A DNA stretch of 64,000 nt from an uncultured Clostridia bacterium (GCA_934120645.1 CAKOUO010000001.1:131273-195272), one strand, 5' to 3'. Counted from the first letter of the stretch, positions 4,499 to 31,088 are shown. The notes: generated by a model not told the origin, from the letters alone. Translations and numbers: made by a program.

Positions 4499-5749
4499 GT
4501 GAAAATTATATTTTTTTACTATTATTACGATGACAAGATAAAAGACAAGCAAAGAGTAGAGTTTCCACCATTAGGTATGTTATATCTGTGTTCAGCTTTA
4601 GAAAAAAATGGTTGTGATGTAGAAGTTAAGTATTTTGACGAAAATACTAAAATAGAAGATATTCCAAATGCTGATATATATGCATATTCAATTTCATCTA
4701 CAGCTTCATATCCGACATATCTAAAATTATGTGAAAAATTAAAGAAAAAAGCTAAATATCATATTGCTGGAAACACTCAAGCAACGATATTTCCTCAAAA
4801 AATTTTAAAAGAAATGAAATTGGATGTAGTCTTCACAGGAGAAGGTGAAGAAACAGTTACAAAGTGGATACAAGACGGATGTAAAGAAAAAGGAATAATA
4901 AAAGGAGAAAGAGTTAATGTTGAGAATTTACCTTTTCCAGCAAGACATTTAATTCCAGATGAAAAGATATATATGAATAATCGTGTTGGAGGAAAGAGCA
5001 AAAATTCTATTAGTATGATTTCTTCAAGGGGGTGCTTATTTAGATGTAAGTTTTGTGCAATTCAAAATAGAGGAAAAGTAAAATTTAGAAATTTAAAAGA
5101 TTTTGAAGAAGAAGTAAAATATCTCTTAAAAAGATATTATAAATGTGATGGAATTACATTACTAGATGAAACATTTACACTTAATACAAAGCATGCGATA
5201 GGAATTGCTAATATCTTTAAGAAGTATGGCTTGAAATGGGAATGTAATTCTAGAGTAGATACAGTCAATGATGAAATTATACAGGCTTTAAGAAATAGCA
5301 ATTGCCAAGAAATAAGATTAGGAATTGAAAGTGGCTCACAAAGAATGGTTGATAATATGAATAAAGATATAAATTTAAAAGAATCAAAAAAAGTAATAAA
5401 AAAACTACATGAAAATGGAATACCGGTAAAATTATATATAATGCATGGATATCCAGGAGAAAATATAGAAAGTAGTTTAGAGACAATAAAATATTTAAAT
5501 GAATTAAGGGAATATATACATAGAATTAGTTTATATAGATTTGTACCATTGCCAGGTTCTCCAGTATTTGCAGAAGGAAAACTTAATCAATTAGATTGGA
5601 CAGATTACACAATATATGATAATAATAATCATTGGTGGGGAACACAAGCAGATTTTAATAATATGAATATAGGATATAGGATGTTAGAAAAATGTGTAAA
5701 ATCAATAAATAATAAAGAATATAGAAAAGAATTTGAAGAAGAGAGGTAA
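4499..5749 (+). CDS. B12-binding-domain radical SAM protein
   Basis: GTG start 7 nt after GGAGG (4487-4491). N-terminal Rossmann-like domain of about 130 aa. CLFRCKFC = CxxxCxxC cluster motif at aa 179-186 (nt 5033-5056). Downstream GIESGS-type radical-SAM core. Confidence 0.85.
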   Translation: MKIIFFYYYYDDKIKDKQRVEFPPLGMLYLCSALEKNGCDVEVKYFDENTKIEDIPNADIYAYSISSTASYPTYLKLCEKLKKKAKYHIAGNTQATIFPQKILKEMKLDVVFTGEGEETVTKWIQDGCKEKGIIKGERVNVENLPFPARHLIPDEKIYMNNRVGGKSKNSISMISSRGCLFRCKFCAIQNRGKVKFRNLKDFEEEVKYLLKRYYKCDGITLLDETFTLNTKHAIGIANIFKKYGLKWECNSRVDTVNDEIIQALRNSNCQEIRLGIESGSQRMVDNMNKDINLKESKKVIKKLHENGIPVKLYIMHGYPGENIESSLETIKYLNELREYIHRISLYRFVPLPGSPVFAEGKLNQLDWTDYTIYDNNNHWWGTQADFNNMNIGYRMLEKCVKSINNKEYRKEFEEER

Positions 5750-5757
5750 TAATAAAA

Positions 5758-6441
5758 ATGGAATGTTCATTTTGTAGTGAAATAAATAATAAAGAAGAAA
5801 ATAATTTTTTTGATATATATCTAAAAAAAGAATTTGAAAAAGAAGGATTAAATAGTAGAATAGTAGCAACTACAAAGAAATTTGTAATAATGCCTATGGT
5901 AGGACCACTAGTTCCAGGATATTTATTAATAGTACCAAAAGATCATTACTTATCAATAGCACAATTGCCAAAAGAACAAGTTGAAGAATTAAAAATGATA
6001 AAAGAAGAATTAAAAAAAGTGTTTAAGCAATATTATGGAAAATTTGTATTTTTCGAACATGGGGCATTGTCTTGTTCAGCAAAAGGCGGATGCTGTTCTG
6101 ATCATGCACACTTACATATAGTTGCAGTTGATATAGATGTAAAAGACGAGTTTAGTAAATATGGATACAAATTAAGAAAAATAGAAGACTACAGCGAAAT
6201 AATAGATCAAAAGCAAAGAAACACACCATATTTATATTATGAAAATCAAAATGAAGAAATGTTTGTTGCTGATGCACCAGTAGTAGAATCACAATTTATA
6301 AGAAAATTAATTGCGAAAGATATTAATGCATTAGATAGAGCTTTATGGAATGAAAATATTAGGAAGGATTGGATGATAGAGATAGTAAAAACTTTAAGAC
6401 CACATTTTGAAAATTTGAAAGGAACTTCAATATGGGAATAA
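5758..6441 (+). CDS. HIT-like / GalT-like nucleotide hydrolase or transferase
   Basis: Starts 8 nt after the radical-SAM stop. N-terminal CSFC (CxxC) and a histidine-triad-like DHAHLHIV at aa 115-122 (nt 6100-6123). Confidence 0.6.
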   Translation: MECSFCSEINNKEENNFFDIYLKKEFEKEGLNSRIVATTKKFVIMPMVGPLVPGYLLIVPKDHYLSIAQLPKEQVEELKMIKEELKKVFKQYYGKFVFFEHGALSCSAKGGCCSDHAHLHIVAVDIDVKDEFSKYGYKLRKIEDYSEIIDQKQRNTPYLYYENQNEEMFVADAPVVESQFIRKLIAKDINALDRALWNENIRKDWMIEIVKTLRPHFENLKGTSIWE

Positions 6442-6519
6442 AACAATTTTTAGGAATAAAATGGATTAAAGATAATCCACAGATGCTATTTTATGATAAT
6501 TTGACGCATTCTATAGAAT

Positions 6520-7380
6520 ATGAAGATTGTAGTCGGAAATATAGAGATTAAAAAGACTATGGAGAAACATTGCAAAGGCTATTATAATTTATTAAAAAGA
6601 GAAATAGTACCATGTCAATTTTTTACTGATTTGACGGGGAGTGAATATTGCCAATGCAAAGCATGTCAGACAAAGTCTGGATTTGATTTATGTTTAGGAT
6701 GTAATGGTAGTATATGTCGAACAAATAGTGATACAGCAAGAAGATTTTGCCATGAAGAACATCATGTATACCTTGCTTATTTTGCAAATGATAAATTAAA
6801 GGTAGGAACTGCGGCTAGTTACAGAAAATATGAAAGACTATTAGAACAAGGGGCTATTTATTCTATATTTTTAGCTCAAACTCCAAATGGAAGAATTGCA
6901 AGACAATTAGAGAGTAGAATATCAAATTTAGGAATAGCATCTAGAGTGAACTCATCTTATAAAATGAATAATTTTATAATAGATAGAGACCAAGAAGAAA
7001 TAGACAAGATGCTTATGAAAGAATATGAATCTATTTTACAAAGAATAGATGATAAATGTAAAAAATATTTTATTAAGCCAGAGTATAATAATTTTACAAA
7101 TATTTCTGATAAAGTAAAACAAAATTTATTAGAAGGAAGTAGACAATTAAATCTTTTTGGTAACATGGATGAACCAGAATATAAAGAATACACAAAAGTA
7201 TACAAACCAGAATATATATCAGGAGAAATCATGGCAACTGTTGGAAACTTGATATTGTTAATGAAAGATAATAAATATTCTGTAGTTAATATGAAAAATT
7301 TGGAGGGATGGATAGTCGACTTTAAAAAGAGAGAAATAGGAGAGAAAAGTAATGATAGCATTGACAAAGGCGAAAGATAG
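6520..7380 (+). CDS. Cys/His-rich zinc-ribbon protein with DUF2797-like region (hypothetical)
   Basis: Nine Cys in the first 80 aa (CQCKAC, CLGCNGSIC, FCHEEHH). The KLKVGTAASYRKYERLLEQGA block resembles DUF2797 as I recall it. There is no convincing SD before ATG 6520; an in-frame TAG at 6514 forbids a longer N-terminus. Confidence 0.45.
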   Translation: MKIVVGNIEIKKTMEKHCKGYYNLLKREIVPCQFFTDLTGSEYCQCKACQTKSGFDLCLGCNGSICRTNSDTARRFCHEEHHVYLAYFANDKLKVGTAASYRKYERLLEQGAIYSIFLAQTPNGRIARQLESRISNLGIASRVNSSYKMNNFIIDRDQEEIDKMLMKEYESILQRIDDKCKKYFIKPEYNNFTNISDKVKQNLLEGSRQLNLFGNMDEPEYKEYTKVYKPEYISGEIMATVGNLILLMKDNKYSVVNMKNLEGWIVDFKKREIGEKSNDSIDKGER

Positions 7381-7660
7381 AAATTTAATATCTAAATATG
7401 GAAAATTAAAAGGATGGGATATTTGTAATAGTTTAGGACTGCCATCTTTTGGAGATGTATACATTTTAAGCGACTATATAGATGAAAAGGATCCGAAAAT
7501 AAAAGAAATATTTGGTATAGACAAAATTATTTATGGTAATTTTCAGATGCCAAACAAACCATTCGGAATTATGATGAATATATATGAAGATAAATTTTGT
7601 GTATTTGAAGTGTGGAATATCGAAAGATCAATTAACAAAACAATAGAACTAGATAGATAA
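7352..7660 (+). CDS. Hypothetical 102-aa protein, translationally coupled to the upstream gene
   Basis: The ATG at 7352 is preceded by GGAGAG (7339-7344) and overlaps the upstream ORF by 29 nt. No recognisable motif. Confidence 0.45.
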   Translation: MIALTKAKDRNLISKYGKLKGWDICNSLGLPSFGDVYILSDYIDEKDPKIKEIFGIDKIIYGNFQMPNKPFGIMMNIYEDKFCVFEVWNIERSINKTIELDR

Positions 7661-7681
7661 AACTACCTAGTTTTATTGTTT

Positions 7682-8107
7682 CTATAACCAATTATTGTCA
7701 TATAGAACCTGTTTTGTAATATTACTTAATTTTCCTAACTTATCTAGTTCTTTTATTTCTTCTTTAGTATAAAATTGTGCGCCTGCTAAATCAGTTGCTG
7801 AGTGAACTAAATTTTTGTCATAATCTGCTGACCAGTAGATTATAATTCGATGTTCATCTGGATTATTAATAATTTCATAAGTTTTTAATTGTTTAATATT
7901 TGTAATTTCTAACCCTGTTTCTTCCATTGTTTCTCTTTTTACAGTATCTTCCATTCTTTCAAATAATTCAACACCACCTCCAGGTGTAATTATCATTCCT
8001 TTATTTGGTTCTTTATTTCTAATTCCTAATAATAATTTATTATTTGATTTTATTAGAACAGAACAACCTACCCTTATATTATTCAAAAGATATCGCCTCC
8101 TATGCAT
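7682..8107 (-). CDS. NUDIX hydrolase
   Basis: Nudix box GGGVELFERMEDTVKRETMEETGLE (GX5EX7REUXEEXGU). Convergent with the radical-SAM operon. Confidence 0.85.
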   Translation of the reverse strand: MHRRRYLLNNIRVGCSVLIKSNNKLLLGIRNKEPNKGMIITPGGGVELFERMEDTVKRETMEETGLEITNIKQLKTYEIINNPDEHRIIIYWSADYDKNLVHSATDLAGAQFYTKEEIKELDKLGKLSNITKQVLYDNNWL

Positions 8108-8188
8108 AAAGAATATAATAAGAATTATATTTTGTCAACATATTTAAAATATAAAAAATATATGATATAATTCAAAAAAAAGAAAGAA

Positions 8189-9352
8189 GTGATAATCTTG
8201 GAAATATATTTAGATAATGCTGCAACAACAAAAATGGATAATAGAGTTTTCGAAGAAATGGTGCCATATTTGAAAGAAAAGTATGGAAATCCATCATCAG
8301 CTTATAAAATAGGAAGAGATAATAAGAAAATAATTGAAGATTCAAGAAAAAAAGTGGCTTTAAATTTAAATGCAAATCCAAGTGAAATATATTTTACAAG
8401 TGGTGGAAGTGAAGCCGATAATATGGCTTTGAAGGGGATTGCATTAGGTAATGTTGATAAAGGAAAACATATTATTACAAGTAAAATAGAACATCCAGCA
8501 GTTTTAGATACATGTAAAGAATTAGAAAGAGAAGGATTCGAAATTTCATATGTCGGAGTAGATGAAAACGGAATTATAAAATTAAGAGAACTAGAAAATA
8601 CAATAAGAAAGGATACAATTCTAATTTCAATTATGTTTGCTAATAATGAGATTGGAACGATTCAACCAATAAATGAAATAAGTCAAATTGCAAAAAAATA
8701 TAATATTTTATTTCATACAGATTGTGTACAGGCAATAGGAAATGTTAAAATAGATGTAAAAAGTATGAATATAGATTCACTTTCATTGTCTGCACATAAA
8801 TTTTATGGACCAAAAGGAATAGGCGTATTATATTTAAAAAATGGAATAAAATTTAGAAAATATTTGAATGGGGGACATCAAGAAAGAAATAGAAGAGCGG
8901 GAACAGAAAATGTTGCAGGAATTATTGGGTTAGCTAAAGCAATAAACATAGTTCATGATAACTTGGAAGAAAACAATAAAAAAACAATTGAATTAAGAGA
9001 CTATTTTATAAATGAAATTAAGAAAAATATAGAAGAAGTAAAGATTAATGGAGATTTAATAAAAAGGTTGCCGGGAAATATAAATATTACTTTTAAATTT
9101 GTAGAAGCAGACAATATATTATATGAATTAGATAAAAAAGGTATATACATATCTACAGGTAGCGCTTGTACTACTGGGAGTATAGAATCTTCGCATGTAT
9201 TAAGAGCTATAGGATTGTCAGATACTGAGGCACATAGTACTATCAGAATTAGTATAGGAAAATATAATAATAAAGAAGAAATAGATTATACTATAAAATG
9301 TTTAATTGAAGTGATTAATATGCTAAGAAAATTATCTCCATTATATTACTAA
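8189..9352 (+). CDS. nifS: Cysteine desulfurase (NifS/IscS class V aminotransferase)
   Basis: GTG start. PLP-lysine motif SAHKFYGPKG and catalytic-Cys loop STGSACTTGS. No adjacent NifU/IscU scaffold gene. Confidence 0.88.
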   Translation: MIILEIYLDNAATTKMDNRVFEEMVPYLKEKYGNPSSAYKIGRDNKKIIEDSRKKVALNLNANPSEIYFTSGGSEADNMALKGIALGNVDKGKHIITSKIEHPAVLDTCKELEREGFEISYVGVDENGIIKLRELENTIRKDTILISIMFANNEIGTIQPINEISQIAKKYNILFHTDCVQAIGNVKIDVKSMNIDSLSLSAHKFYGPKGIGVLYLKNGIKFRKYLNGGHQERNRRAGTENVAGIIGLAKAINIVHDNLEENNKKTIELRDYFINEIKKNIEEVKINGDLIKRLPGNINITFKFVEADNILYELDKKGIYISTGSACTTGSIESSHVLRAIGLSDTEAHSTIRISIGKYNNKEEIDYTIKCLIEVINMLRKLSPLYY

Positions 9353-9434
9353 TAATATTAAGTATTGAAAATTTCTAAAATTATTATTATAATTAATTTA
9401 GGAAAATAAAAAATACTATAATAAAGGGGATAAA

Positions 9435-12257
9435 ATGAATAAAAAAACCAAAAGAAAAATAATAGTAATACTAATATTAGCAATATTAACATTTGCAAAT
9501 ATAGTATCAGCTGTAGCAGTACATTCTAACACAAATACAAATACAGTTGAAAATGGAAAAGAATTAGAATTTACAATTCGATTTAATGAAAAAGTTATAA
9601 CTGCAGATTTTTCAGTTCATTTTGACTCAGATAATTTAACATATATTGGAACATCAATAGAAGATTTAAAAACCAATTATATAAAAGAAAAATCTGAAAT
9701 GATTTGTTGTTATTATGATGTTAATAAAATTGGAACAGATACAATTTCGTTTAAATTTAAAGCAAATAAAGAAACAAATAAAACAAATATAAGAGTAACA
9801 AATATTACAGTACATACAAATTCTACAGAAATGCAAATTAATGATATTATTAGCGAAAATATTAAAATAATTAAAACTAATACAGAAACAAATAATAATA
9901 TAGTTCAAAATATAGTTAATAATTCAAACATACAACAGCAATTAGATGATTTAACAAAAAATGAAAATAAAGATACTACAACGGCAATAAGAGCATTACC
10001 TAAAACAGGTTTAGAATTTGATTTAAAAGATTTTTTAACAATAGTTATAGTAGGTTTGATTTTAATAATAGTGATAAAAAATGATAAATTAAGTAAAAAA
10101 ATAAAAATAATAATTTCTATAATTATTATTTTAATGGGAACAATGATATTTCTTAGTAAATATGTTTTTGCAAAAAATGATGACAAAATTTTTATAAATA
10201 AAACTGACAAAACTATTTTAATAGTACTTTCAACTTCAAATGAAGAAAGAAGTATGAGTATACAAAACTTTAAAGAAAAAACAAAAGCTGTAAATATAGA
10301 TAATAGTATACTTTTATCAGGAGTAACAGCAACATTTAAAAATAATGAAAAATATACAATAGAAGTATTTAGAGATGAAAACAAAAATGGATATGTAAAT
10401 TCAAGTGATATTTTTGAACTTTTAAATAATGAAAATATAAATACAAAAGATATAGAAGAACTTTGTAATTTTATTATAAAGAAAGAAGAATTTAAAAAAT
10501 ATAATAATATACAAAATGGATATGAAGAATTTAATGAAAAATCTATTATAACACCAAATGTAACACCATTAGAACCTGCAACAGATAGATATACACCTGT
10601 AAAAAATATAACAGAACTTAAAAACTTAAATGCAAAAGTAGGGGAGAAGTATAAAACATTAGGATATTATGAAGAAAATGATGGTGGTGCAGGAAGATAT
10701 GATATTATAGAAAAAACTTCAAATATAAAAGTAGATAATGGCTTATATATTGAATTAAATAACGGCTTAATCGCAAAGCTTGCAATTATAAAAGATACTA
10801 TTAATGTTAAACAATTTGGAGCCAAAGGAAATAGCATAAATAATGATACAGAATATTTAAGAAAAGCTATAAATTCTGGAATTGCTAATGTTGAATTTCC
10901 AAAAGGTGAATATAAAATTACAGACATTATAAGGTTGGAAACACCATCTACAAATATAATTGGAAATAATAGTACTATTTTTACAGATAATGATTTTAAT
11001 CCAGAAAAAACAAGTGAATTTTTATTTATTATGCAATCAGATAACTGTAATATAAGTAATTTAAATATTGAAGCAAGAGAGACAAAAAACATTGAAAATT
11101 TATATAATTCTCAGGTTTATGTTGGTGCTACAAATATAAAGATTATAGGTTGCACATTTAAAATTCCAGAAACAGCAAGTAGGGAACATTCATATGGCAA
11201 TATTGATTTATATACTGGTTGGCACAATGTGTTAATAGAAAATTGCAATTTATATTTAGCAAATGATGCCAAAGAAGGTGGATGCATTTGGGTTAGAGAC
11301 TTATTTAATAGAGGGGCAAGTGACTTAACATTTATAAATAATAAATGCTATAAAAAGTGCCATGATGAAATATTAGCAGTATTTATGGGAAGTATAGAAA
11401 ATGTTAATATTTTAAACAATACATTTATAATGCCAAATAGTACTGATCCAAGTACAATGTGTTTTACTTTAGGATCTGCTTCTAGTAAAAAAGCTGAAAA
11501 TATTAGATTTGAAGGAAATACAATAGATACTAAGGCTACAATGAGCTTATTAATTTCTAGAAATGCTACTAATTTAAGCATTAAAAATAATAAAGTTAAA
11601 TTTGAACGTGTAACAACATTAACAAATACATTTTTAATATATTTTCCAGAAAATAATTTAAAAGATGTAGTAATAGAGAATAATAATTTTGAAATTAATA
11701 ATAATACAGATAAATCAATAAATGGATTTATAGCTTCAAATTCTGAAAATATAATATTTAAAGAAAATACAATAACAGTAAATAGTGAAATTTCTGAAGT
11801 GTTTACAGGTGAATATACTACTACAAATAATAATATAACTTTTAATGGCTTTGCTAAAATCTTAGCAAATAAACCAAAAGAATTTATAGGAAACCATATT
11901 ATATTTAATAAAGGATTTGGTTCAATAGCTCAATATTATAATGGTAAACTTGATTGGGATAGTAATATAAAAAATAATATTTTTGAGAATAATTATGATG
12001 AAATTAGTGCAAATGAAAAATCAATATTACTAATGTTTAATGGAGGAAGTTTAAATAACCATATTGTTGATTTTGAAGAAAATACTATAAAGTCTGATAA
12101 AGCTAATTATGGACAAAATTTAATTTATCTTTTAAATTTGTCTGATGAAGAATCTCAAACTATCAAAATTATTAATAATAAAATTAATGGATATAAACAG
12201 GGATGGAAGGACAAAAATCAAGAAAAGCATAATATTATAACAGATAATAATACATAA
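9435..12257 (+). CDS. Surface protein: signal peptide, cohesin-like domain, internal LPKTG sorting signal, second TM, dockerin-like Ca loop, right-handed beta-helix
   Basis: One uninterrupted 940-codon ORF. Signal peptide aa 1-27. LPKTG at aa 188-192. The INVKQFGAKGNSINNDTEYLRKAI start is typical of pectate-lyase-3/tailspike-like beta-helices. The repetitive N-rich parallel-helix region runs to the C-terminus. Confidence 0.7.
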   Translation: MNKKTKRKIIVILILAILTFANIVSAVAVHSNTNTNTVENGKELEFTIRFNEKVITADFSVHFDSDNLTYIGTSIEDLKTNYIKEKSEMICCYYDVNKIGTDTISFKFKANKETNKTNIRVTNITVHTNSTEMQINDIISENIKIIKTNTETNNNIVQNIVNNSNIQQQLDDLTKNENKDTTTAIRALPKTGLEFDLKDFLTIVIVGLILIIVIKNDKLSKKIKIIISIIIILMGTMIFLSKYVFAKNDDKIFINKTDKTILIVLSTSNEERSMSIQNFKEKTKAVNIDNSILLSGVTATFKNNEKYTIEVFRDENKNGYVNSSDIFELLNNENINTKDIEELCNFIIKKEEFKKYNNIQNGYEEFNEKSIITPNVTPLEPATDRYTPVKNITELKNLNAKVGEKYKTLGYYEENDGGAGRYDIIEKTSNIKVDNGLYIELNNGLIAKLAIIKDTINVKQFGAKGNSINNDTEYLRKAINSGIANVEFPKGEYKITDIIRLETPSTNIIGNNSTIFTDNDFNPEKTSEFLFIMQSDNCNISNLNIEARETKNIENLYNSQVYVGATNIKIIGCTFKIPETASREHSYGNIDLYTGWHNVLIENCNLYLANDAKEGGCIWVRDLFNRGASDLTFINNKCYKKCHDEILAVFMGSIENVNILNNTFIMPNSTDPSTMCFTLGSASSKKAENIRFEGNTIDTKATMSLLISRNATNLSIKNNKVKFERVTTLTNTFLIYFPENNLKDVVIENNNFEINNNTDKSINGFIASNSENIIFKENTITVNSEISEVFTGEYTTTNNNITFNGFAKILANKPKEFIGNHIIFNKGFGSIAQYYNGKLDWDSNIKNNIFENNYDEISANEKSILLMFNGGSLNNHIVDFEENTIKSDKANYGQNLIYLLNLSDEESQTIKIINNKINGYKQGWKDKNQEKHNIITDNNT
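9996..10076 (+). other. Sortase sorting signal (LPKTG + hydrophobic helix, followed by a basic tail) located inside the ORF
   Basis: LPKTG at 9996-10010 and FLTIVIVGLILIIVI at 10032-10076, followed by KNDKLSKKIK. A second hydrophobic helix lies at 10107-10169. Confidence 0.6.
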
Positions 12258-12346
12258 AGACATATAATAAAATATTGCATAATTCGACAAAAAATGATAG
12301 AATAAAAAAGTACATTAAATTACATATGTTGAAAGGAGATATATAT

Positions 12347-12739
12347 ATGACAAATCAATATAATGTAGACATTCGGAATCTTCCAATTGTTGTCATAAAA
12401 GCAATCCGGGATGACGAAAACATTGTAAATGTATTATTATTAACAAAAGGTGCAAGTGAATGCTTGTATGTAATTCAGAGCCATTCAGAAGAAACAGGCA
12501 AAGAAATTTTTCGTGTGGTTTCTTATGGTAAGAGTGAGATAGAATATTTTTTGAAAAATGCAGACACTTCACAGTTAGATTTTCAAAAAAAGCATGCTAT
12601 CGAAAAAATACATTTGCTAATCGAAACTTTAATTGAGGAATACTCAATCAAAGAAACGGATTGCTTATATATCGGCAAACAAAAAACAAGTATATCTTCT
12701 ATCCAAAACATTGATGATTTTATTAAATTAATGTTTTAA
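12347..12739 (+). CDS. Hypothetical protein (130 aa, orphan)
   Basis: ATG 12347 lies 9 nt after GGAG (12334-12337); the longer track ORF from 12275 lacks an RBS. Has its own terminator. CGG codons are atypical for the surrounding DNA. Confidence 0.5.
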   Translation: MTNQYNVDIRNLPIVVIKAIRDDENIVNVLLLTKGASECLYVIQSHSEETGKEIFRVVSYGKSEIEYFLKNADTSQLDFQKKHAIEKIHLLIETLIEEYSIKETDCLYIGKQKTSISSIQNIDDFIKLMF

Positions 12740-12766
12740 AAGCCCGTTAAGGGCTTTTTTATTTTT
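12739..12766 (+). terminator. Intrinsic terminator
   Basis: aaagccc-gttaa-gggcttt stem-loop followed by a T-run. Confidence 0.6.
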
Positions 12767-12844
12767 ATAATATTGAAAAATTATGGATTTTGTGTTAATA
12801 TAATAAAGACATTTTAATAATAACATTAGGAAGGAGTCTTTTAT

Positions 12845-13129
12845 ATGGTAAAAGAAAGTATAACGTTTACAGAGAACGGAAAGCGGGAAGTAACAATAAC
12901 CTTGCCTTTAAAAAGAACTATGCAAAATAAGGCAATAACAGAAAATGATTATGATGATTATCTGCAAAGAAAAACGCAGGTATTGTCATATGATGCATTT
13001 GCATATGATTTGACATTGACACTATATAAAGTGTCGTTACAGAATGCAATTGTCTTCAATTACCGCGGGTCCGAAGAAAATATTCAGAAGTTTATTTCTA
13101 AGTGGAAACCTGATATACAAGAATTTTAG
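12845..13129 (+). CDS. Hypothetical protein (94 aa, orphan)
   Basis: AAGGAG (12831-12836) lies 8 nt before the ATG. Has its own terminator. CGG/CGC/GGG codons. Confidence 0.5.
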   Translation: MVKESITFTENGKREVTITLPLKRTMQNKAITENDYDDYLQRKTQVLSYDAFAYDLTLTLYKVSLQNAIVFNYRGSEENIQKFISKWKPDIQEF

Positions 13130-14321: not shown

Positions 14322-14407
14322 TTTTTTGTTTGTATATAATATAATGTATAGAGCCATATTTTTAATAAAATAAGGCTCGATATATTTTTTTAAAGAGGGT
14401 GGTCCAA

Positions 14408-15370
14408 ATGGACACAATAGTTATGAAGTTTGGAGGAAGTTCAGTTGCTAATAATGATAGATTAAAGCTTGTAGCACAAAAAATAATTGATTTATATAAT
14501 AAAGATAATAATATTGTAGTTATACTTTCTGCACAAGGAAAAACAACAGATAAATTAATTAAAGAGGCCAATGAACTTTCTAAAAATACAAAAGATAGAG
14601 AAATGGATATGTTACTTAGTTCAGGTGAACAAATATCAATAGCAAAATTAAGTATTTTATTAAATGAATTAGGATATAATGCAATTTCGTTAACTGGCTG
14701 GCAAGCTGGCATTTTAACTAATAAAACAAATCAAAATGCGATTATAAAAAATATAGATACTACAAGGATATTAAAAGAATTAAATAAAAGAAAAATTGTA
14801 ATTATAGCAGGATTTCAGGGGTATAACGAAAATTTAGATATTACGACATTGGGGAGAGGAGGTTCAGATACATCTGCCGTTGCCATAGCAGCTGCTTTAA
14901 AAGCAAAAGAATGCTATATTTTTTCAGATGTTGATGGTGTTTATACGGCTGATCCAAATAAGTTACCAGAAGCAAAGAAGATACCTGCACTTTCTTATAA
15001 TGAAATGATAGAAATTTCTAGTGAGGGAGCAAAAGTACTTCATAACAGATGTGCTGAAATAGGAGAAAAGTTTAAAATTCCGATTATTACTAAATCTACT
15101 TTTAATAATAAGGCCGGTAGTATTATTACAGATATCATTGAAGAAAATACTATAAAAAGTGTTGTAAAAAGAGACATTTCAAGAATTTCTATTGTTGGAA
15201 ATGGTGTTATTAGAAATTATAATTTTATTAAAAAAATTTTAGATATTTTTGCTGAAAATAAGTTGGAAATGTTAGAGTTTAATGTTTCTGAATCTAAAAT
15301 TTCTATAGATTTTAAAAATGTAATTAGTGATGAAATATTAAAAAAAGTCCATTCAATCATATTAAAATAA
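14408..15370 (+). CDS. Aspartate kinase (short form, apparently a single ACT domain)
   Basis: MKFGGSSV N-terminus and the TLGRGGSDTSAVAIAAAL and DVDGVYTADP motifs. ATG 14408 lies 8 nt after AAGAGGG. About 320 aa. Confidence 0.88.
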   Translation: MDTIVMKFGGSSVANNDRLKLVAQKIIDLYNKDNNIVVILSAQGKTTDKLIKEANELSKNTKDREMDMLLSSGEQISIAKLSILLNELGYNAISLTGWQAGILTNKTNQNAIIKNIDTTRILKELNKRKIVIIAGFQGYNENLDITTLGRGGSDTSAVAIAAALKAKECYIFSDVDGVYTADPNKLPEAKKIPALSYNEMIEISSEGAKVLHNRCAEIGEKFKIPIITKSTFNNKAGSIITDIIEENTIKSVVKRDISRISIVGNGVIRNYNFIKKILDIFAENKLEMLEFNVSESKISIDFKNVISDEILKKVHSIILK

Positions 15371-15416: not shown

Positions 15417-16826
15417 TTATTTTTCAACAGCTTTGTCGATACCATAAGAGTTTACCCGGTACACATAGCCCATTCCAAGAATACCTGTTTTTTTGATACC
15501 AAGTTCTTTTTGTGCTCTTGCTTCAAGTGCTTCTTTATTTTTTGGCTCGCCATGATTGAATAGAATTGACAAAGGTGCAAATTGTAGAAAAAATTCAATT
15601 ATCTGGTCTGCAGTTGCATGTGATGAAAATTCACCAGTTTGCTTTACTTCTGCATTTTTAATTACAGAGTGACCATCTTTAAATAGAATTTCTTCACCAT
15701 AGTCTGCTTCAACAATCTTTTTAGCAAGAGTACCTTCAGATGCATATCCAGGGATATACAACAAAGCATTTGAATTGGATAAGAAATGAGGAATATATGT
15801 TGCTGCTGGTCCATTACTTCCCATACCAGATGTAGAAATAAATATTGCTCTTTCCGTAGAATTCAAGAGAGCCGGTCTTGTTTTATTATCTACAAACTGA
15901 ATATTGTAAGGGAAGAAATTTTTGGCTTCTTCTCTTAAGCGCAGAATGTTACTGCGGTCAAGATATCGAAATGTATAGGCTGCTGTAGTTGTACCGTCAA
16001 CCCGTACAGGATAATCTTTAGGAATTTTTCCTTCATCCTGCAATTTTCTTATACGGTACATTAATTCCTGAGCTCGTCCTTGACCAAAAGCACAATTAAA
16101 TATTAATTGGTTTCTTGAACAAGCCTCAACAATGTCATCTTCCCAGATTTGCTGGATGTCACAAGAATTTGTAGAACCATATGTTGCTTCTGAAATGATA
16201 GTCAAATTGGGTAATGCATATACCCAATATGGAAATGGCTTAATATCCAAAAAGATGTTATTAGGCTTATAGTCTCCTGTATAAAGAAGATTAATAATTC
16301 CGCCCGGTTCATCAATTTGAACCAAAATACAAGAAGCTCCAATTAGATGCCCATTATTAAAGAATGTTACACTGATGTTGCTATGAATCTTTACAGTTTG
16401 TTCATACTTAACGGTTTCAATTTGCTTAATGGTCTGATTAATATCACTTTCTGAAAAAAGAATTGGCCGTTTTTTTAATTTAGCATCTCTTTTCATGATG
16501 TTGTAGCTGTCCAATAGACCAATATCTATAACAGCTGCTGATGCGTCAGACATGTAGATTTTCTTGTTGTAACCTTTTCTAACAAAGATAGGTAGTGCAC
16601 CATCGTGGTCCAGGTGGGTGTGAGTAAGTAATATTGCATTAATTTTTTCTGGATTGACGCTATCATTATACTCAATACCGTGATGACCTTCACCTTGATA
16701 CATACCATAGTCTACTAAAAACCGAAACTTTTCTCCATCAGAAAAATGAACGGTATTTCTAATACATGAACCTGTTACGCCTTTATGATATCCACGTATG
16801 TCGACATAAGGTTTTCCTTTTGCCAT
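15417..16826 (-). CDS. Beta-CASP metallo-beta-lactamase-fold nuclease (CPSF/TTHA0252-like)
   Basis: VTGS...DYGMYQG N-terminus and HTHLDHDG (HxHxDH, nt 16605-16622). Also NNGHLIGAS, YTGDY, SEATYG (motif A), FSSHA (motif B) and NHGE (motif C). The second ATG (16826) has correct spacing to AAAGGAG. Confidence 0.8.
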   Translation of the reverse strand: MAKGKPYVDIRGYHKGVTGSCIRNTVHFSDGEKFRFLVDYGMYQGEGHHGIEYNDSVNPEKINAILLTHTHLDHDGALPIFVRKGYNKKIYMSDASAAVIDIGLLDSYNIMKRDAKLKKRPILFSESDINQTIKQIETVKYEQTVKIHSNISVTFFNNGHLIGASCILVQIDEPGGIINLLYTGDYKPNNIFLDIKPFPYWVYALPNLTIISEATYGSTNSCDIQQIWEDDIVEACSRNQLIFNCAFGQGRAQELMYRIRKLQDEGKIPKDYPVRVDGTTTAAYTFRYLDRSNILRLREEAKNFFPYNIQFVDNKTRPALLNSTERAIFISTSGMGSNGPAATYIPHFLSNSNALLYIPGYASEGTLAKKIVEADYGEEILFKDGHSVIKNAEVKQTGEFSSHATADQIIEFFLQFAPLSILFNHGEPKNKEALEARAQKELGIKKTGILGMGYVYRVNSYGIDKAVEK

Positions 16827-16905
16827 ATTCATAACTCCTTTCTTTTCACAAAACTTTGATTTTATGCCATTTTATAAAACAGCAAGCTAAAGAGTTTCTA
16901 TACAA

Positions 16906-16934
16906 ATTTTATCATTATTACATGATTATGTCAA
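16906..16934 (-). promoter_or_regulatory. Putative sigma-A promoter of the beta-CASP gene
   Basis: On the minus strand: TTGACA (16934-16929), 17-nt spacer, TAAAAT (16911-16906). Confidence 0.5.
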
Positions 16935-16972
16935 TTAATATATACAAAATTTAAGATTTTTTGCTTCAATTG

Positions 16973-17001
16973 TTTACATTAACAAATAAAAGTGTTAAGA
17001 T
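16973..17001 (+). promoter_or_regulatory. Putative promoter of the 108-aa orphan
   Basis: TTTACA (16973-16978), 17-nt spacer, TGtTAAGAT extended -10 (16993-17001). Confidence 0.4.
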
Positions 17002-17048
17002 AATAAGTATAAAAGTGATTATTTCACTAGCAGAAAGGAGCTTCGCTT

Positions 17049-17375
17049 ATGCTAAACCGGAAGAAAAATGGCAATATAGAAGATATAGCAATTGAAGTTA
17101 ACCAATGGAGGGATGAAAAAAGGAAACAAGTAACAATAAACTTATTTCCAGGTGAGGAAGAATATCTAACAGAAAAATTAAACTGTATAGTTTTACCAAT
17201 ATTTTATGAAATTACAGACAAACATTTAGATAATATGAAAAATTGTCCTAATTTCGTAAAAGAAAACTACAGTACAAAAAGCAAAAAAGTTTTTAAGTTA
17301 AATAAACGCGAAAGACGATTGTTAGATAGTCAAGGAATTGAATATAAACCATTGGGGTATATTGTGTTTCTGTGA
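17049..17375 (+). CDS. Hypothetical protein (108 aa, orphan)
   Basis: AAAGGAG (17034-17040) lies 8 nt before the ATG. Has its own terminator. No recognisable motif. Confidence 0.5.
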   Translation: MLNRKKNGNIEDIAIEVNQWRDEKRKQVTINLFPGEEEYLTEKLNCIVLPIFYEITDKHLDNMKNCPNFVKENYSTKSKKVFKLNKRERRLLDSQGIEYKPLGYIVFL

Positions 17376-17378
17376 AAA

Positions 17379-17408
17379 AAGAGCAAGTTTTATTCTTGCT
17401 CTTTTTTT
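17379..17408 (+). terminator. Intrinsic terminator
   Basis: aagagcaag/cttgctctt 9-bp stem followed by a T-run. Confidence 0.65.
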
Positions 17409-17417
17409 GGACTTAAT

Positions 17418-17446
17418 TTGACAAAATTGTATTCCGGATGTAAAAT
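17418..17446 (+). promoter_or_regulatory. Putative sigma-A promoter of the Clp-AAA/M41 gene
   Basis: TTGACA (17418-17423), 17-nt spacer, TAAAAT (17441-17446). AAGGAGG RBS at 17477-17483. Confidence 0.5.
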
Positions 17447-17490
17447 AATTATGTTACTTATTATATAAACATTTATAAGGAGGCTTTATT

Positions 17491-19371
17491 ATGAATAATC
17501 TAAAATTAAATAGTGATGTTTTTGTTTTATTACATGCATCAAACAAGCTTTGTAAAGAATTAAAATTAAATTTTACATCTGGGCTAATTACTTTTTTCAT
17601 GCTTGCTTTGTTGAAAGAAAGTGCATTTCATCGGTACTTACTAAGTAGAAAAATTAGTGATGAAGAAATTTTACAAGTTGCACAAAAGCTATTATTAAAG
17701 TATCATAAAGATTTTTTTGATAGAGAAAGGCGTACAACTCTATATTACTTTTGTTTTAAAAATCTAAAAGAAAAAATAGCTATTAGTAATACACTTTATG
17801 ATATTATAGTAAATGCTCAGGAAATAGCCCAAAACTACTATTATACTGAAACTATAACAAATCAATATATGCTTGCAGCATGTATTGAAAAATTTCCTGA
17901 TATCTATGAAGAATTCATGAGTTCTTGCTTAGGAAAAGAAGTTTTTTTGCCTAAAGCACCAAGTTATTTGGAAAAATCAGATTTAATTACACTTCCAAAT
18001 AATTTAGCAAGTTTTTTAACGGTTATGAACAATGAATATTCTTCAGATGATACTACTTGTAAAATACTTGGAAGAGAAGAAGAAACAGAACAACTTGTAA
18101 GAATACTTGCAAAGGCAACTAAGAAGAATGCAATTTTAGTAGGACCTCCTGGGGTAGGAAAAACAGCAATAGTAGAAAAATTTGCTTGGAGTGTTGTTAC
18201 TGGAAATTGCCATGAAAAATTTAAAAAATCCAAAATAATTTCGTTGGATGTAACATCTATAATTGCGGGAACACAATACAGAGGGTCAGCAGAAGATCGG
18301 TTTAAAGACCTGGTTGAATACTTGAAAGACAATCCGGATTGTATACTGTTCATTGACGAAATACATAGCATATTAGGTGCTGGAGCTTGCAGGGACGGTG
18401 ATTTAGATTTAGAGAATTCTTTGAAACCAATTTTGGCTAGGGGAGATACACAAGTAATTGGAGCAACAACATCAGAAGAATACAGAAAATATTTTTCTCA
18501 AGATGGAGCCTTGAAACGAAGATTTGAAAAAATAGAAGTAAAGGAACCACATGTAGAAGAACTTTATGACATGATTAAAAATCAAATATCTCGTTTGGAA
18601 AAATTTCATAATGTAATTATTCCGAGAGAATTAATTGATTTTGCCATATTGAATGCATCATGTTTCAATTATGAAACTAAAAATCCAGATAGAACATTAG
18701 ATTTACTGGATCGTGCCATGGCTGGAGCAGAATTAAAAAACAAACATGTACTTGATAAGCAGGATATATTAGAGAATTTTGCTATTAGAAAAAAACAGTT
18801 TGATGAAATGCCATATAATAAAAAAATGGCAACAGCTTATCATGAGGCAGGGCACTACATTGTCCACCGTTTTTCTTCTGAGTTACAACATTATACCACC
18901 ACATTAGCAATATCAATTATTCCAGCAGAGGATTACTTAGGAGTTAATGTATATGAACAAAACGAAGGTACAACTCCTTATGAAAACAAAACATTTTACA
19001 TTCAGCTAATTGCTGAAAAATTAGGTGGTAGACTAGCAGAAAAGGCATATAGTGGAGAACTTTCTTCTGGAGCCTCTTCAGATTTAAAAAATGCAACAAA
19101 AATTGCTAAAAACATGGTAACATGTTATGGGTTGGATAAAAGGTTTACCCCAAATAGGACATACTTTATGGAAGATGAAAAGCCAATGTATTCAGAAAAT
19201 GTAATTAAAAAAATCGATGCATCAATTGATAAAATCCTTAATGAAGCTACAAGATATGCTAACAAAATTTTAAAGAAGCACAAAAAGGAGCTTAATATGT
19301 TAGTAGATGAACTTATGCAAAAAGGGATGCTGTCAAAAATCGAACTCGATTCTATTTTTAAAGAAAACTAA
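17491..19371 (+). CDS. Soluble chimera: Clp_N repeat domain + ClpA/ClpC-D1-type AAA+ module + FtsH-type M41 zinc metalloprotease
   Basis: Walker A GPPGVGKT (18142-18165) and Walker B ILFIDEIH (D289-E290 at 18355-18360). ClpA-D1 signature IGATTSEEYRKYFSQDGALKRRFEKIEVKEP. HEAGH at 18841-18855, plus FtsH-like LGGRLAEKA and SSGASSDLKNAT blocks. No TM helix. Confidence 0.85.
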   Translation: MNNLKLNSDVFVLLHASNKLCKELKLNFTSGLITFFMLALLKESAFHRYLLSRKISDEEILQVAQKLLLKYHKDFFDRERRTTLYYFCFKNLKEKIAISNTLYDIIVNAQEIAQNYYYTETITNQYMLAACIEKFPDIYEEFMSSCLGKEVFLPKAPSYLEKSDLITLPNNLASFLTVMNNEYSSDDTTCKILGREEETEQLVRILAKATKKNAILVGPPGVGKTAIVEKFAWSVVTGNCHEKFKKSKIISLDVTSIIAGTQYRGSAEDRFKDLVEYLKDNPDCILFIDEIHSILGAGACRDGDLDLENSLKPILARGDTQVIGATTSEEYRKYFSQDGALKRRFEKIEVKEPHVEELYDMIKNQISRLEKFHNVIIPRELIDFAILNASCFNYETKNPDRTLDLLDRAMAGAELKNKHVLDKQDILENFAIRKKQFDEMPYNKKMATAYHEAGHYIVHRFSSELQHYTTTLAISIIPAEDYLGVNVYEQNEGTTPYENKTFYIQLIAEKLGGRLAEKAYSGELSSGASSDLKNATKIAKNMVTCYGLDKRFTPNRTYFMEDEKPMYSENVIKKIDASIDKILNEATRYANKILKKHKKELNMLVDELMQKGMLSKIELDSIFKEN

Positions 19372-19430
19372 GTATCTATGATTATTCAAAATAATTTAGT
19401 AGAAAATATTCTACTAATCATATCTCTAAA

Positions 19431-19466
19431 AGAAGTATTGCAACTGTAATACTTCTTTCTTTTTTG
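19431..19466 (+). terminator. Intrinsic terminator
   Basis: agaagtatt/aatacttct 9-bp stem with an 8-nt loop and a T-run. Confidence 0.6.
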
Positions 19467-22269: not shown

Positions 22270-23737
22270 ATGAAAAAAATTAAATTTCCACAAATCAAAC
22301 GGCAGCCGATTAACTATTCTACTATAAATGTAGTACCATTCAAATATTATCCATTTCTTTACGATTTGAATAATGTATATTCATTAGTAGACTCTAGCAT
22401 TATTCTTGGAAGAGATAAAGAAATTAATAGGATTTGCAACTGCTTTTTTAGAAATAAGAAAGCAAATGCAATTCTGTTAGGAGACCATGGAGTTGGGAAG
22501 ACAGCAATAGTACAAAAGCTAGTAGACAATGTAATAAAAAAGAAATGTCCTAAAGAAATGTATAATTATCATTTCTTATATCTAGACATTGGATTAATAC
22601 TAGCTAATTTAAGTTTTGATAAAAAGATGCCTAAAAAACTAGGTCAAATATTTGAATTTCTATATAGTTATACTAATATAGTAGTAGTTATAGACCAGGT
22701 GCATCTTGTTCAAGCAAGTGAGCTTTTGTCTTATTATTTTGCGGTACTTGTAAAACATCCAAATATTAAAATTTTGGGACTATCAACAGAAGAGGAATTT
22801 TATCAATTCTTTGAATTTGATAAAAAAACACGGTCAAGGCTGGAAATTATACCGATTTTTGAGCCAAAACCAAATAAAATCTATCCAATGATTAAAAATG
22901 TTATTCATAGGCTAGAGATAGCTCATGGGGTTACAATTAGTAAAGCACTCGTGAGATAACATAATTTGTGTATCCCAAGCTTTTACAAACGAAATTTGCA
23001 ATCCGGAACTCACAGTAGATATCGTAGAGAAATCTATGATTTTTGCAAAAGGAAAACATAAGGAGGAAGTTTCGAAAAAAGATGTTAATTCCAACTTCAA
23101 TTTTAATTATGAACTATACAAAAAAATGTCCAAAGAAGATAAAGAAATTACAGCTTATCATGAAGCTGGACATTTTGTAGTTTCGAAAATGTCTGAGAAT
23201 ATTAGAAACTATAAAACGACAGCCATTACTATTGTTCCAGCGGAGGACTTCTTAGGACTTACTACTTTTGAATTTGAACTTGAAAAACAAACATCTTGTG
23301 ACAAAAACTATTATATCGACAATATTGCTGTAGATCTTGCTGGAAGAGAAGCTGAAATTATTTATTACGGATCAGAAGACAAACTAACTAGTGGAGCGAG
23401 AGAAGATTTAATCAGTTCCACAAAAACAGCAAGAAGAATGGTTACTGAATATGGAATGACAGCTGAAACTGGAAAAAATATATCCTATTTGGGTATACAG
23501 GATTTTACAAATTTATCATTAATTAGTGAAAAAATAAAAGATGCTATTGATGAAGCTACAAAAAAACTTATTTCTGAAGCAGAAAAAAGGGCCAAAAACA
23601 TATTGAAAGAAAATGATGAATTATTAAGAAGAATTGCACAGGAATTAATGGAAAACGAAGTACTTGATGAATGCGATTTGAATAGGATTTGCAAGGAGGT
23701 AGAAGAAAGTAAAAAGATTGGGAAATCAGAAGATTAA
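22270..23737 (+). pseudogene. Paralogue of the Clp-AAA/M41 chimera, no Clp_N, Walker B Asp-Gln, split by a 1-nt frameshift (frame 1 to 22956, frame 2 from 22955)
   Basis: GDHGVGKT (22480-22503). VVVIDQVH, with Q at 22696-22698, replaces IDEIH. Frame 1 stops at 22957-22959. Frame 2 is open from 22955 and continues the alignment without a gap (ISKALV|DNIICVSQAF versus IPRELIDFAILNASCF in the intact copy). HEAGH at 23159-23173, LAGREAE and TSGAREDLISST. Confidence 0.75.
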
Positions 23738-24199: not shown

Positions 24200-24252
24200 T
24201 ATGCTGTAAAGTAGATGGGTGTATGTATCTATGTTATTTTGCATATATAACA

Positions 24253-24278
24253 TTGCACAAAATCAAAGTTTTGTGCAA
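24253..24278. other. Perfect 10-bp hairpin/palindrome in the ORF-free region
   Basis: ttgcacaaaa-tcaaag-ttttgtgcaa. Confidence 0.6.
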
Positions 24279-24383
24279 AAAGAGATAGGAGCAAAATAAT
24301 AGAACCCCTTTCAGAGTCCTACCCACAAGCTCTTGTAACTACTAGCCTTAAAGGCTTTACTAGCTATTTATTAGCTATCGTTT

Positions 24384-24431
24384 GACTAACAATTATTACT
24401 TCATAATTTATTACTTGTAATAATGTTAGTC
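24384..24431. other. Long 15-bp hairpin (one bulged A) in the ORF-free region
   Basis: gactaacAattattac (24384-24399) pairs with gtaataatgttagtc (24417-24431) around a 17-nt loop. Smaller palindromes lie at 24344-24356 and 24361-24377. Confidence 0.6.
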
Positions 24432-24804
24432 TGGTCCCAGATATTTATTTCTAAAATCAATTTTAAATCAGTTTTATAATTTATCTTTATAATTTTATAT
24501 TTAAATATTTTTTCTATTTAAAATTTATTTTATTACTTAATAATTTTTATTTCATATTATATTTTATATATTTTTTTCAAAAATCTTCAAAATGCCTATT
24601 TCTCTATATTTGCAGTATTTTACCAACAACAAACTATAAGCCTAAAAAATAAAAACGGCTTAAAATCGATTCTCGTGCGTCACTTTTTTAGCCTTTTTCA
24701 AGCATTTTTAATAAATGCCTAAAAATCAGAATTTCTACTTAAATTTATATATTTTATATTATAAAGACTATCTTTTAAAATTTATACATCTGATTAAAAA
24801 ATAT

Positions 24805-24837
24805 AACTTGTTAGATAAAATATAAAAATCTCTTAAA
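24805..24837 (+). repeat. 33-nt direct repeat, copy 1
   Basis: aacttgttagataaaatataaaaatctcttaaa, identical to 26109-26141. Confidence 0.8.
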
Positions 24838-25296
24838 ATCAATTTTAGCGTGTCTAAAATATAAAATTATATTATGGATTTGTAATCTAAAATTATATAA
24901 TAGCTATACAAAAATTTTATTAAAGTATAATGAAAAATTTATTTACAAACAATTTTAACAAATGTTCGTTTTTTAAAATTTCATGTATAAAATTAACTTT
25001 ACACAAAATTTTAAATTTTTAAATTATAAATTTTACTTATAAATTTTTTTAAATTCTAAATTTAAAATTTTATTATTTATTTTTTTAAAATTTTTATTTT
25101 ATATATTTTAATAGTATAAAACTTTTTATGTGTTTATTTTTTAGTTTTAAAATTCTTTCTAAGTTTCTATTTTTGCATTTTCTTTGAAATAGCCTATTTT
25201 CCCTATTCCCCACTTATTTTGCTGCATATATGAAAAATATCTATATAACATTTAAGTTTTTGTTTAGCTAAATCTTACTAAAGTCTATATTAGGAT

Positions 25297-25339
25297 AAAA
25301 TAAAAGAGCCTCCTAGCTCTTTTATTTATTGATTTTTTG
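25297..25339 (-). terminator. Conserved AT-rich terminator module, copy 1
   Basis: aaaataaaagagcc-tccta-gctcttttatttattgattttttg. It contains the stop codon and last codons of the 207-aa gene. Related copies are at 26368-26410 and 26935-26977. Confidence 0.6.
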
Positions 25340-30943: not shown

Positions 30944-31088
30944 TTTTTATTTACCTTCTTATTTTAAAATTCGAGTTAAATTATATCATATAGAAGTAGA
31001 ATCTGCAAACTTGATTTATTTACGAAAAAAGGTTTTATTTTATTATTTTTTGTTATATAATGTAAAAAAATATTGGAGTGTGAAACGT

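Follow-up and report, generated by a model that had tools for sequence, protein, structure and literature searches.

A predicted Clp-FtsH hybrid protease and a minimal beta-CASP nuclease in a variable chromosomal slot of uncultured gut Clostridia

Of fused, self-contained ATP-dependent proteases, bacteria are known to have two designs, Lon and FtsH. FtsH couples an AAA+ module of the classic clade directly to a downstream M41 peptidase domain and carries a transmembrane anchor and a periplasmic domain. ClpA and ClpC possess an N-domain, a D1 ring and a D2 module that bears the ClpP-docking loop, the presence of D1 and D2 in one chain being the mark of class I Hsp100 proteins. Among nucleases, TTHA0252, CPSF73, aCPSF1 and IntS11 share a core of metallo-beta-lactamase (MBL), beta-CASP and RMMBL domains. 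Here we describe a locus of an uncultured Clostridia bacterium that encodes relatives of both groups side by side. The window, that is, the whole stretch of DNA analysed (GCA_934120645.1 CAKOUO010000001.1:131273-195272), comprises 64,000 nt with an overall G+C content of 25.9%, and the locus, at positions 15417-19466, holds three genes. The reading that we consider probable is that these are three independent, lineage-restricted genes inherited vertically in a slot of changing content, encoding a nuclease that probably acts on RNA, a small protein and an AAA+ protease of hybrid architecture, with housekeeping rather than conflict as their role.

15417-16832, minus strand: beta-CASP nuclease gene, 471 aa, likely start at 16826
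17049-17375, plus strand: orf108, 108 aa
17491-19371, plus strand: hybrid protease gene, 626 aa

The protease combines domains of two families. Pfam recognizes AAA, AAA_lid_9 and Peptidase_M41 (115 bits against a cutoff of 29.9), while NCBIfam places a ClpA D1 over residues 166-421 (E 1.9e-71) and an FtsH C-terminus over residues 434-617 (E 3.8e-37), so that the unfoldase-protease chimera proposed in a preliminary description of this DNA is borne out at the level of domains. A helical domain resembling the Clp N-domain occupies residues 1 to about 150, followed by a ClpA-type D1 with its lid (about 166-430) and the M41 domain (443-621); neither a D2 module nor a transmembrane helix is predicted in the 626-residue protein, and M41 sits in the place of D2. 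Sites that are invariant or almost so across 55 homologues include Walker A (G218-T225, GPPGVGKT here and GxPGVGKT across the set), the pore loop Y263-R264-G265, Walker B D289-E290 (ILFIDEIH), R343-R344, the H451-E452-x-x-H455 motif (HEAGH) and D531. By these motifs, the set expected of an active AAA+ unfoldase (Walker A, Walker B, aromatic pore loop and arginine finger) appears complete. In an AlphaFold2 (AF2) model (mean predicted local distance difference test score, pLDDT, 84.7), the N-domain and D1 align with ClpC, the first 150 residues forming a soluble helical bundle that aligns to the ClpC N-domain. The modelled D1 superposes on ClpA and ClpC1 with a root-mean-square deviation of 2.3-3.4 Å, and the AAA+M41 portion aligns with FtsH, AFG3L2 and YME1.

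Comparison with the parent families shows what has been kept and what has been exchanged. With FtsH the hybrid shares the M41 domain, with HEAGH and the third-ligand Asp, and the AAA+ module fused directly upstream of it. Whereas its M41 domain qualifies for FtsH by score, the membrane anchor and periplasmic domain are absent and a Clp N-domain is present; the ATPase is of the Clp/Hsp100 D1 type (AAA_lid_9) and not of the classic clade, and the FtsH equivalog model gives 128 bits against a cutoff of 600. With ClpA and ClpC it shares the N-domain, the D1 ring, Walker A and B, a KYRG-type pore loop and arginine fingers, but it has D1 alone and no D2, and hence no ClpP-docking loop; the protease is instead fused in cis, and the ClpA model scores 241 bits against 993.

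This architecture is, as judged from the homologous sequences, conserved in at least 72 species of gut Clostridia, a group that is abundant although uncultured. A scan of one genome per species recovered 72 protease loci, all from metagenome-assembled genomes of uncultured gut 'Clostridia' or 'Clostridium sp.' sampled from humans, mice, rabbits, ruminants and chickens, and in 40 of these loci the match begins at residue 50 or earlier. The best 120 homologous clusters are all full length, 49-100% identical and uniform in their Pfam set. A frameshift or an assembly error divides the hybrid protease gene of L037 (9869-11888) between two open reading frames (ORFs) that overlap, one of 317 aa and one holding the remainder. 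Full-text literature searches found no published description of a Clp-D1/M41 hybrid, which is absence of evidence only, and the family is apparently uncharacterised.

The domain content suggests how such a protein might work. The Clp-type N-domain would select substrates or adaptors, the ClpA-like D1 ring, with intact Walker A and B motifs, pore-loop Tyr and arginine fingers, would unfold and thread them, and the fused FtsH-type M41 ring, with HEAGH and Asp, would degrade what is threaded. Assembly into hexamers and actual proteolysis are what the conserved motifs and the model lead us to infer, and the hybrid would then be a soluble, self-compartmentalising AAA+ protease with no need for a second ATPase ring, ClpP or a membrane anchor.

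A second gene of the same kind lies nearby in the window:

22270-23737, plus strand: degenerate AAA-M41 paralogue, downstream of rho

It is shorter than the hybrid; its Walker B reads D-Q and the pore-loop Tyr is gone, while HEAGH is intact, and the equivalent Walker B residues in relatives are D-N or D-G. These residues mark it as a naturally occurring ATPase-dead variant that has kept its protease site. The copy in the window is split by one additional A at 22958 (GAGATAACAT versus GAGAT-ACAT), whereas a 99.7%-identical contig from another sample (L091; such labels denote the compared loci from related genomes and contigs) carries it intact with 488 aa, so the frameshift represents either strain-specific decay or an assembly error. 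The position after rho is also occupied in L021, L047, L079 and L101. The pairing of a dead with an active copy recalls mixed FtsH/FtsHi rings, and by analogy only, the two proteins could form mixed rings.

The nuclease belongs to a well-described fold. Pfam identifies Lactamase_B_6, Beta-Casp (62.4 bits against a cutoff of 27.7) and RMMBL (E 7e-10). The gene probably starts at 16826, giving 469 aa, because the GGAG ribosome-binding site lies 8 nt from that ATG and only 2 nt from the one at 16832; 469 aa is also the length called in other assemblies. The motifs D41, H71-x-H73-x-D75-H76, H162, D187, E215, H405 and H427, which correspond to MBL motifs 1-4 plus beta-CASP motifs A, B and C and thereby place the protein among beta-CASP enzymes, are invariant in 14 family members of 34-81% identity. 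The preliminary description had credited the protein with every catalytic motif and with probable nuclease activity, and with all seven motifs invariant, the enzyme does look active.

Its sequence matches in the PDB are aCPSF1 (2xr1, 1.9e-36), IntS11, TTHA0252, CPSF73, FttA and Cas14, and its closest solved relatives are all RNases. Residues 34-434 align with TTHA0252 22-407, an end-to-end match. The shared features with TTHA0252, CPSF73, aCPSF1 and IntS11 comprise the MBL, beta-CASP and RMMBL core and motifs 1-4, A, B and C, the last with His. The architecture is minimal, consisting of these three domains without KH or C-terminal domains. The protein begins at the MBL domain and lacks the two N-terminal KH domains of aCPSF1/FttA, matching that model only at positions 197-618 with 192.6 bits against 580. 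Nor is it an RNase J, since TIGR00649 gives 32.9 bits against 400 and covers residues 60-190 only. The top NCBIfam model is Cas14 of type VII CRISPR (3.4e-63, over the catalytic core), yet the score is 214 bits against a cutoff of 800 and the protein has no counterpart of the C-terminal third of Cas14. A Cas14 would be expected in association with cas5/cas7 genes and a CRISPR array; the annotated ORFs of the window include no cas genes or domains, and no Rfam CRISPR family was found in it. Because the cutoffs for aCPSF1, RNase J and Cas14 all fail and the KH domains and the Cas14 C-terminal part are lacking, the nuclease is classed by sequence as a minimal beta-CASP enzyme of the CPSF73/TTHA0252 class. 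Its family is narrow, with about 90 clusters of 34-99% identity, all from gut Clostridia metagenomes, and the next matches are at most 27% identical.

RNA is the most likely substrate by analogy with these relatives. The enzyme would cut RNA as an endonuclease and/or a 5'-3' exonuclease with two zinc ions, in RNA processing or decay. That it acts instead on DNA, in a repair role, would be in keeping with family members that adjoin recJ, recN, uvrA/uvrB and polC in other genomes, but we regard this as very unlikely. Motif C reportedly carries a His in RNA-acting beta-CASP proteins and a Val in the DNA-acting SNM1/Artemis type, and the nuclease has His (H427). Moreover, RMMBL, the RNA-specificity domain, matches at the E-value given above, the top PDB relatives are RNases without exception, and the model for ligase-associated DNA exonucleases reaches just 27 bits against a cutoff of 325.

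Between the nuclease and protease genes, orf108 encodes what sequence conservation and modelling mark as a genuine small alpha/beta protein, divergent to the nuclease gene. It has 35 homologues of 56-99% identity with 23 invariant residues, and a search of 1.84 billion representatives returned nine matches, about five of them full length. No match was found in Pfam, NCBIfam or PADLOC, and with an AF2 model of pLDDT 80.7, the best PDB match has E 0.16 and the best match to viral models E 0.076. The gene is mostly divergent to nucleases of one clade (clade I, below) and is retained where the protease is gone, while in L018 and L037 more distant relatives precede the protease gene. Its size, and the ClpA-like gene that follows it, prompted the idea of a ClpS- or MecA-like adaptor, which was rejected because no fold match was found and orf108 persists without the protease cassette.

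Each of the three genes appears to be transcribed on its own. The following signals and flanking genes delimit them:

14399-15370: aspartate kinase gene (aspK), left flank of the trio
15404-15376, minus strand: terminator-like hairpin of the nuclease gene, 12-pair stem with 5 G-C pairs and a T-run
16934-16906, minus strand: sigma-70-type promoter of the nuclease gene, TTGACA-17-TAAAAT with TG, 11 of 12 positions
16973-17001, plus strand: sigma-70-type promoter of orf108, TTTACA-17-TAAGAT, extended -10 (preceding TG)
17373-17409, plus strand: terminator of orf108, its T-tract forming the left edge of the protease cassette
17418-17446, plus strand: sigma-70-type promoter of the protease gene, TTGACA-17-TAAAAT, 11 of 12 positions
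19429-19458, plus strand: terminator of the protease gene, right edge of the protease cassette
about 17410-19462, plus strand: protease cassette (promoter, gene and terminator), absent in L092
19535-19831: yabP, right flank of the trio

The promoters of the nuclease and protease genes are the two best sigma-70-type matches within the 6 kb scanned, although promoter-like sites as a whole show no excess there (37 found versus 34.8 by chance); terminator-like hairpins number 7 against 2.0 expected. The promoter hexamers of the nuclease gene and orf108 are kept in six other species. The hairpin at 15404-15376 lies 6 nt past the aspartate kinase stop and may serve as a shared terminator for the two convergent genes. 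Taken together, the predicted transcription signals point to three independent monocistronic units with vegetative-type promoters. The coordinates, domains, promoters and terminators given for the trio in the preliminary description, including a promoter and terminator for each gene and the placement between aspartate kinase and yabP, could all be recovered, and its four hand-made G+C counts (23, 21, 9 and 18 per 60 bases) are exact.

The composition of the locus does stand out, as had been noted there. At a G+C of 0.312, the 4050-bp region is the maximum of all 4050-bp windows (mean 0.260, standard deviation (sd) 0.021); the nuclease gene, at 0.352, ranks top among the 56 genes counted in the window (mean 0.264, sd 0.033), and its G+C at third codon positions (GC3) is 0.244 versus 0.146±0.047 for window genes. 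The preliminary description had taken the genes for an acquired islet, a reading that comparison with relatives does not sustain. In all ten other species tested, the nuclease gene has a G+C of 0.30-0.365 against 0.255-0.305 for its neighbours, 3-8 points higher, and the adjacent protease genes are likewise G+C-richer. The same excess in the orthologues of ten species makes the bias intrinsic to the genes and not a mark of recent transfer. The order prfB-aspK-nuclease-(orf108)-protease-yabP-yabQ-divIC-rho is found in L001/L096, L019, L047, L094 and L021. No tRNA genes or Rfam structured RNAs were found in the window, no mobile-element marks were seen at the slot boundaries, and the nearest integrase is 11 kb off, at 30846. 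A recent island would be expected to differ on each of these counts: here the atypical composition is shared with ten species, the block is syntenic and integration marks are lacking. Acquisition is thus not supported, and the trio seem from these sequence comparisons to be old residents of a variable slot.

That the slot, defined as the interval between aspK (or prfB) and yabP, varies in content between conserved flanks was confirmed among the relatives compared:

window, L091 and L001/L096: nuclease, orf108 and protease
L092, L093 and L098-L108: nuclease and orf108 only
L094, L019, L047, L021 and L024: nuclease and protease
L018 and L037: PhoH-like ATPase, orf108-like gene and protease
L079: two tandem nucleases and an unrelated 136-aa ORF
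L088: one nuclease
L117-L131: nothing, a nuclease and a ClpX-like gene lying upstream of prfB instead

The genes are therefore separable: nuclease and orf108 persist without the protease, and PhoH stands in the place of the nuclease. In L092, whose nuclease is 89% identical, the protease cassette is cleanly missing, the alignment placing both junctions in the T-runs after the two terminators. Loss by deletion in the L092 lineage is more economical than insertion in the window, because more distant relatives hold the protease in the slot. The preliminary description had asked whether the three genes occur together elsewhere. They do so in L001/L096, but each also occurs without the others and the trio is not syntenic in all relatives, so that neither a complete lack of co-occurrence nor universal synteny, the two outcomes named there as fatal to its proposal, was fully found. 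As a separate observation, the PhoH-like ATPases of L018 (7792-9312, minus strand) and L037 (7776-9284, minus strand) have 502-506 aa with an N-terminal extension of about 230 aa and take the position and orientation of the nuclease, and in L138-L142, L165 and L168, the beta-CASP gene is followed immediately by a PhoH gene.

The divergence of the nucleases also has an explanation within the slot. Nucleases in one and the same slot share as little as 34% identity, against 86-90% for rho and prfB. Three clades (I, II and III) separate in a distance tree, and at 5495-8437 L079/L080 carry a tandem pair of beta-CASP genes, one of clade II and one of clade I, with 37% identity between them. Because L079 retains both clades in tandem, old paralogy is indicated in the slot, and differential loss of ancient tandem copies would explain most of the nuclease divergence. 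Hypervariability as the signal of an arms race was accordingly rejected, the three old paralogous clades accounting for the 34% identity. Clade III is a broad clade found amid core genes, in the order lysS-nuclease-recJ-relA, beside recN, or between DUF1980_C and secA.

These data bear on the proposal of the preliminary description that a nuclease effector and an ATP-driven protease make up a horizontally acquired module of anti-phage defence or conflict. The G+C-richer, fast-evolving and lineage-restricted genes in a slot of variable content would suit such a module, as would the position of Cas14 as best NCBIfam match of the nuclease (214 bits) and the distant beta-CASP homologues, 22-28% identical, that a phage search with the nuclease found in gut phage contigs. 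However, the PADLOC-DB v2 library of 2023, run on the three proteins and the paralogue, gave nothing credible: LmuA matched with E 0.0048 (14 bits), and IetA with 1.5e-08 over the P-loop only and with no IetS. The preliminary description, too, could match the locus to no named defence system. The Cas14 score is far under its cutoff, with no cas gene among the annotated ORFs, the composition bias is common to orthologues, the flanks and wider family contexts consist of core genes, the close relatives show the genes to be separable, and tRNA genes in the window and mobile-element marks at the boundaries are lacking. In a tblastn search against 50,697 phage records, none covered at least 80% of the chimera. 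A defence role is for these reasons very improbable. Phage origin was also considered and rejected, with no phage record carrying the chimera and beta-CASP matches of only 22-28% identity, as was heat-shock control, no CtsR or CIRCE operator being present anywhere in the window. A weaker alternative in the preliminary description, a module of stress proteolysis and RNA decay, comes close to the reading preferred here in its RNA decay and proteolysis, while its stress component found no signal of the CtsR/CIRCE type.

Whether the nuclease and an AAA+ protease are functionally linked is a separate matter. Nuclease contexts were dereplicated at 90% identity and required to have at least 2.5 kb of flank on each side, which left 27 evaluable, with the following neighbours:

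7 of 27 contexts: full ClpD1-M41 gene
3 of 27 contexts: degenerate AAA-M41 gene
3 of 27 contexts: ClpX-like gene without zinc finger
1 of 27 contexts: PhoH gene
13 of 27 contexts: none of these

The ClpX-like proteins form a group worth recording in itself. They have 349-384 aa and no zinc finger, score 214-225 bits against a ClpX cutoff of 359 and are encoded in L083 (5660-6814), L085 (8636-9694), L090 (8649-9698) and L116-L135. Their genes lie close to secA or prfB and may precede or follow the adjoining clade-III beta-CASP gene.

Cooperation may have kept a beta-CASP nuclease and a Clp-type unfoldase or protease together as a functional pair, for example in RNA-protein quality control where ribosomes or polymerases have stalled, or with the protease setting the level of the nuclease. 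Adjacency occurs in all clades, namely I (window, L001, L094), II (L019, L047) and III (L021, L024, L060, L081, L152); it involves three AAA+ architectures (ClpD1-M41, degenerate AAA-M41 and zinc-finger-less ClpX-like), divergent and tandem orientations, both gene orders (L083 versus L085) and unrelated flanks (uvrB/smpB/polC in L081, upstream of secA in L060). Set against this, 13 of the 27 nuclease contexts have no AAA+ neighbour, and the protease lacks a nearby nuclease in 66 of 73 protease-anchored loci (about 90%). Much of the adjacency falls in one inherited neighbourhood (AI-2E/DUF1980_C/secA/prfB/aspK/yabP), so that the cases are not independent; the rate is inflated by seven positive loci that a protease-anchored search supplied, and the genes of the window have separate promoters and terminators. 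A functional link is plausible on this evidence, and we hold it as a tentative possibility. About as tentative is the broader proposal that a CPSF73-like RNase and a Clp-family AAA+ machine, whether hybrid, dead paralogue or ClpX-like, make up a previously unrecognised surveillance system for RNA plus protein; the hybrid itself would add to Lon and FtsH a third way in which nature has fused an AAA+ protease.

The reading of the trio as independent, vertically inherited genes must also face observations that weigh against it. A Clp-family AAA+ gene adjoins the beta-CASP gene in 13 of 27 contexts, which exceeds expectation for independent housekeeping genes, and the presence or absence of the protease cassette between close relatives is the behaviour of accessory genes. 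In addition, the nuclease (34-89% identity) and the protease (50-72%) have diverged well beyond prfB, aspK, yabP and rho (79-95%), of which ancient paralogy would explain part. On the preferred reading, the three genes occur only in a single lineage of uncultured, AT-rich gut Clostridia and are inherited vertically there, while duplication, loss and replacement would have reshuffled the content of the slot. A housekeeping rather than a conflict role is what we infer for the trio, the core-gene surroundings of clade-III nucleases offering a hint in that direction.

The rest of the window provides the genomic setting. Its left third holds, in order, an AI-2E transporter, DUF1980_C, secA, about 9 kb of lineage-specific genes, prfB, aspartate kinase, the nuclease/orf108/protease trio, yabP, yabQ, divIC and rho, and the remainder encodes cell-wall polysaccharide synthesis, a penicillin-binding protein (PBP), peptidases and similar functions. 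The 9 kb between secA and prfB (4499-13129), genes that are less than 1 kb apart in L079, contain a B12/radical-SAM protein, a HIT protein, DUF2797, a NUDIX protein, an aminotransferase and a putative surface protein of 940 aa that belongs to no family and has a G+C of 0.22; the top GC3 values of the window, 0.25 and 0.32, belong to the family-less ORFs at 12275-12739 and 12845-13129. Cumulative GC skew peaks near 23-24 kb, and at 24200-25320, about 1.1 kb of AT-rich DNA without an ORF of at least 40 aa marks the point where gene orientation and GC skew flip from plus to minus. In this the segment is like a replication terminus or the boundary of an inversion; a dif sequence of the B. subtilis type was not found at the strand switch. 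A tyrosine recombinase of the phage-integrase family, with a listed length of 408 aa, is encoded at 30846-32072 (plus strand) and may be a Xer-type recombinase or a mobile-element remnant. Its listed TTG start lies inside the divergent PBP gene (28523-30943), so that the two genes share about 100 nt at their starts. Finally, a 761-aa protein (36802-39087, minus strand) carries sigma-70 regions 2 and 4 within residues 1-175, and the long C-terminal extension beyond them has no family match.

The hybrid protease is the part of this locus with the widest implications. As predicted from sequence and model, it would place an FtsH protease ring under the drive of a Clp/Hsp100-type D1 with a Clp N-domain, in a soluble and ClpP-free form, which would mean that the two great bacterial unfoldase-protease families have recombined in nature. 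Often accompanied by an ATPase-dead paralogue, the hybrid offers a natural test of a Clp-type motor coupled to another protease chamber. Locally G+C-richer DNA and an unusual domain fusion, as this locus illustrates, need not mean an acquired defence island. The recurrent but non-obligatory neighbourhood with a CPSF73-like RNase is a testable lead linking RNA decay and proteolysis, and if a surveillance system of this kind does exist, it might clear stalled ribosome or polymerase complexes, with the RNA being cut and the protein degraded.

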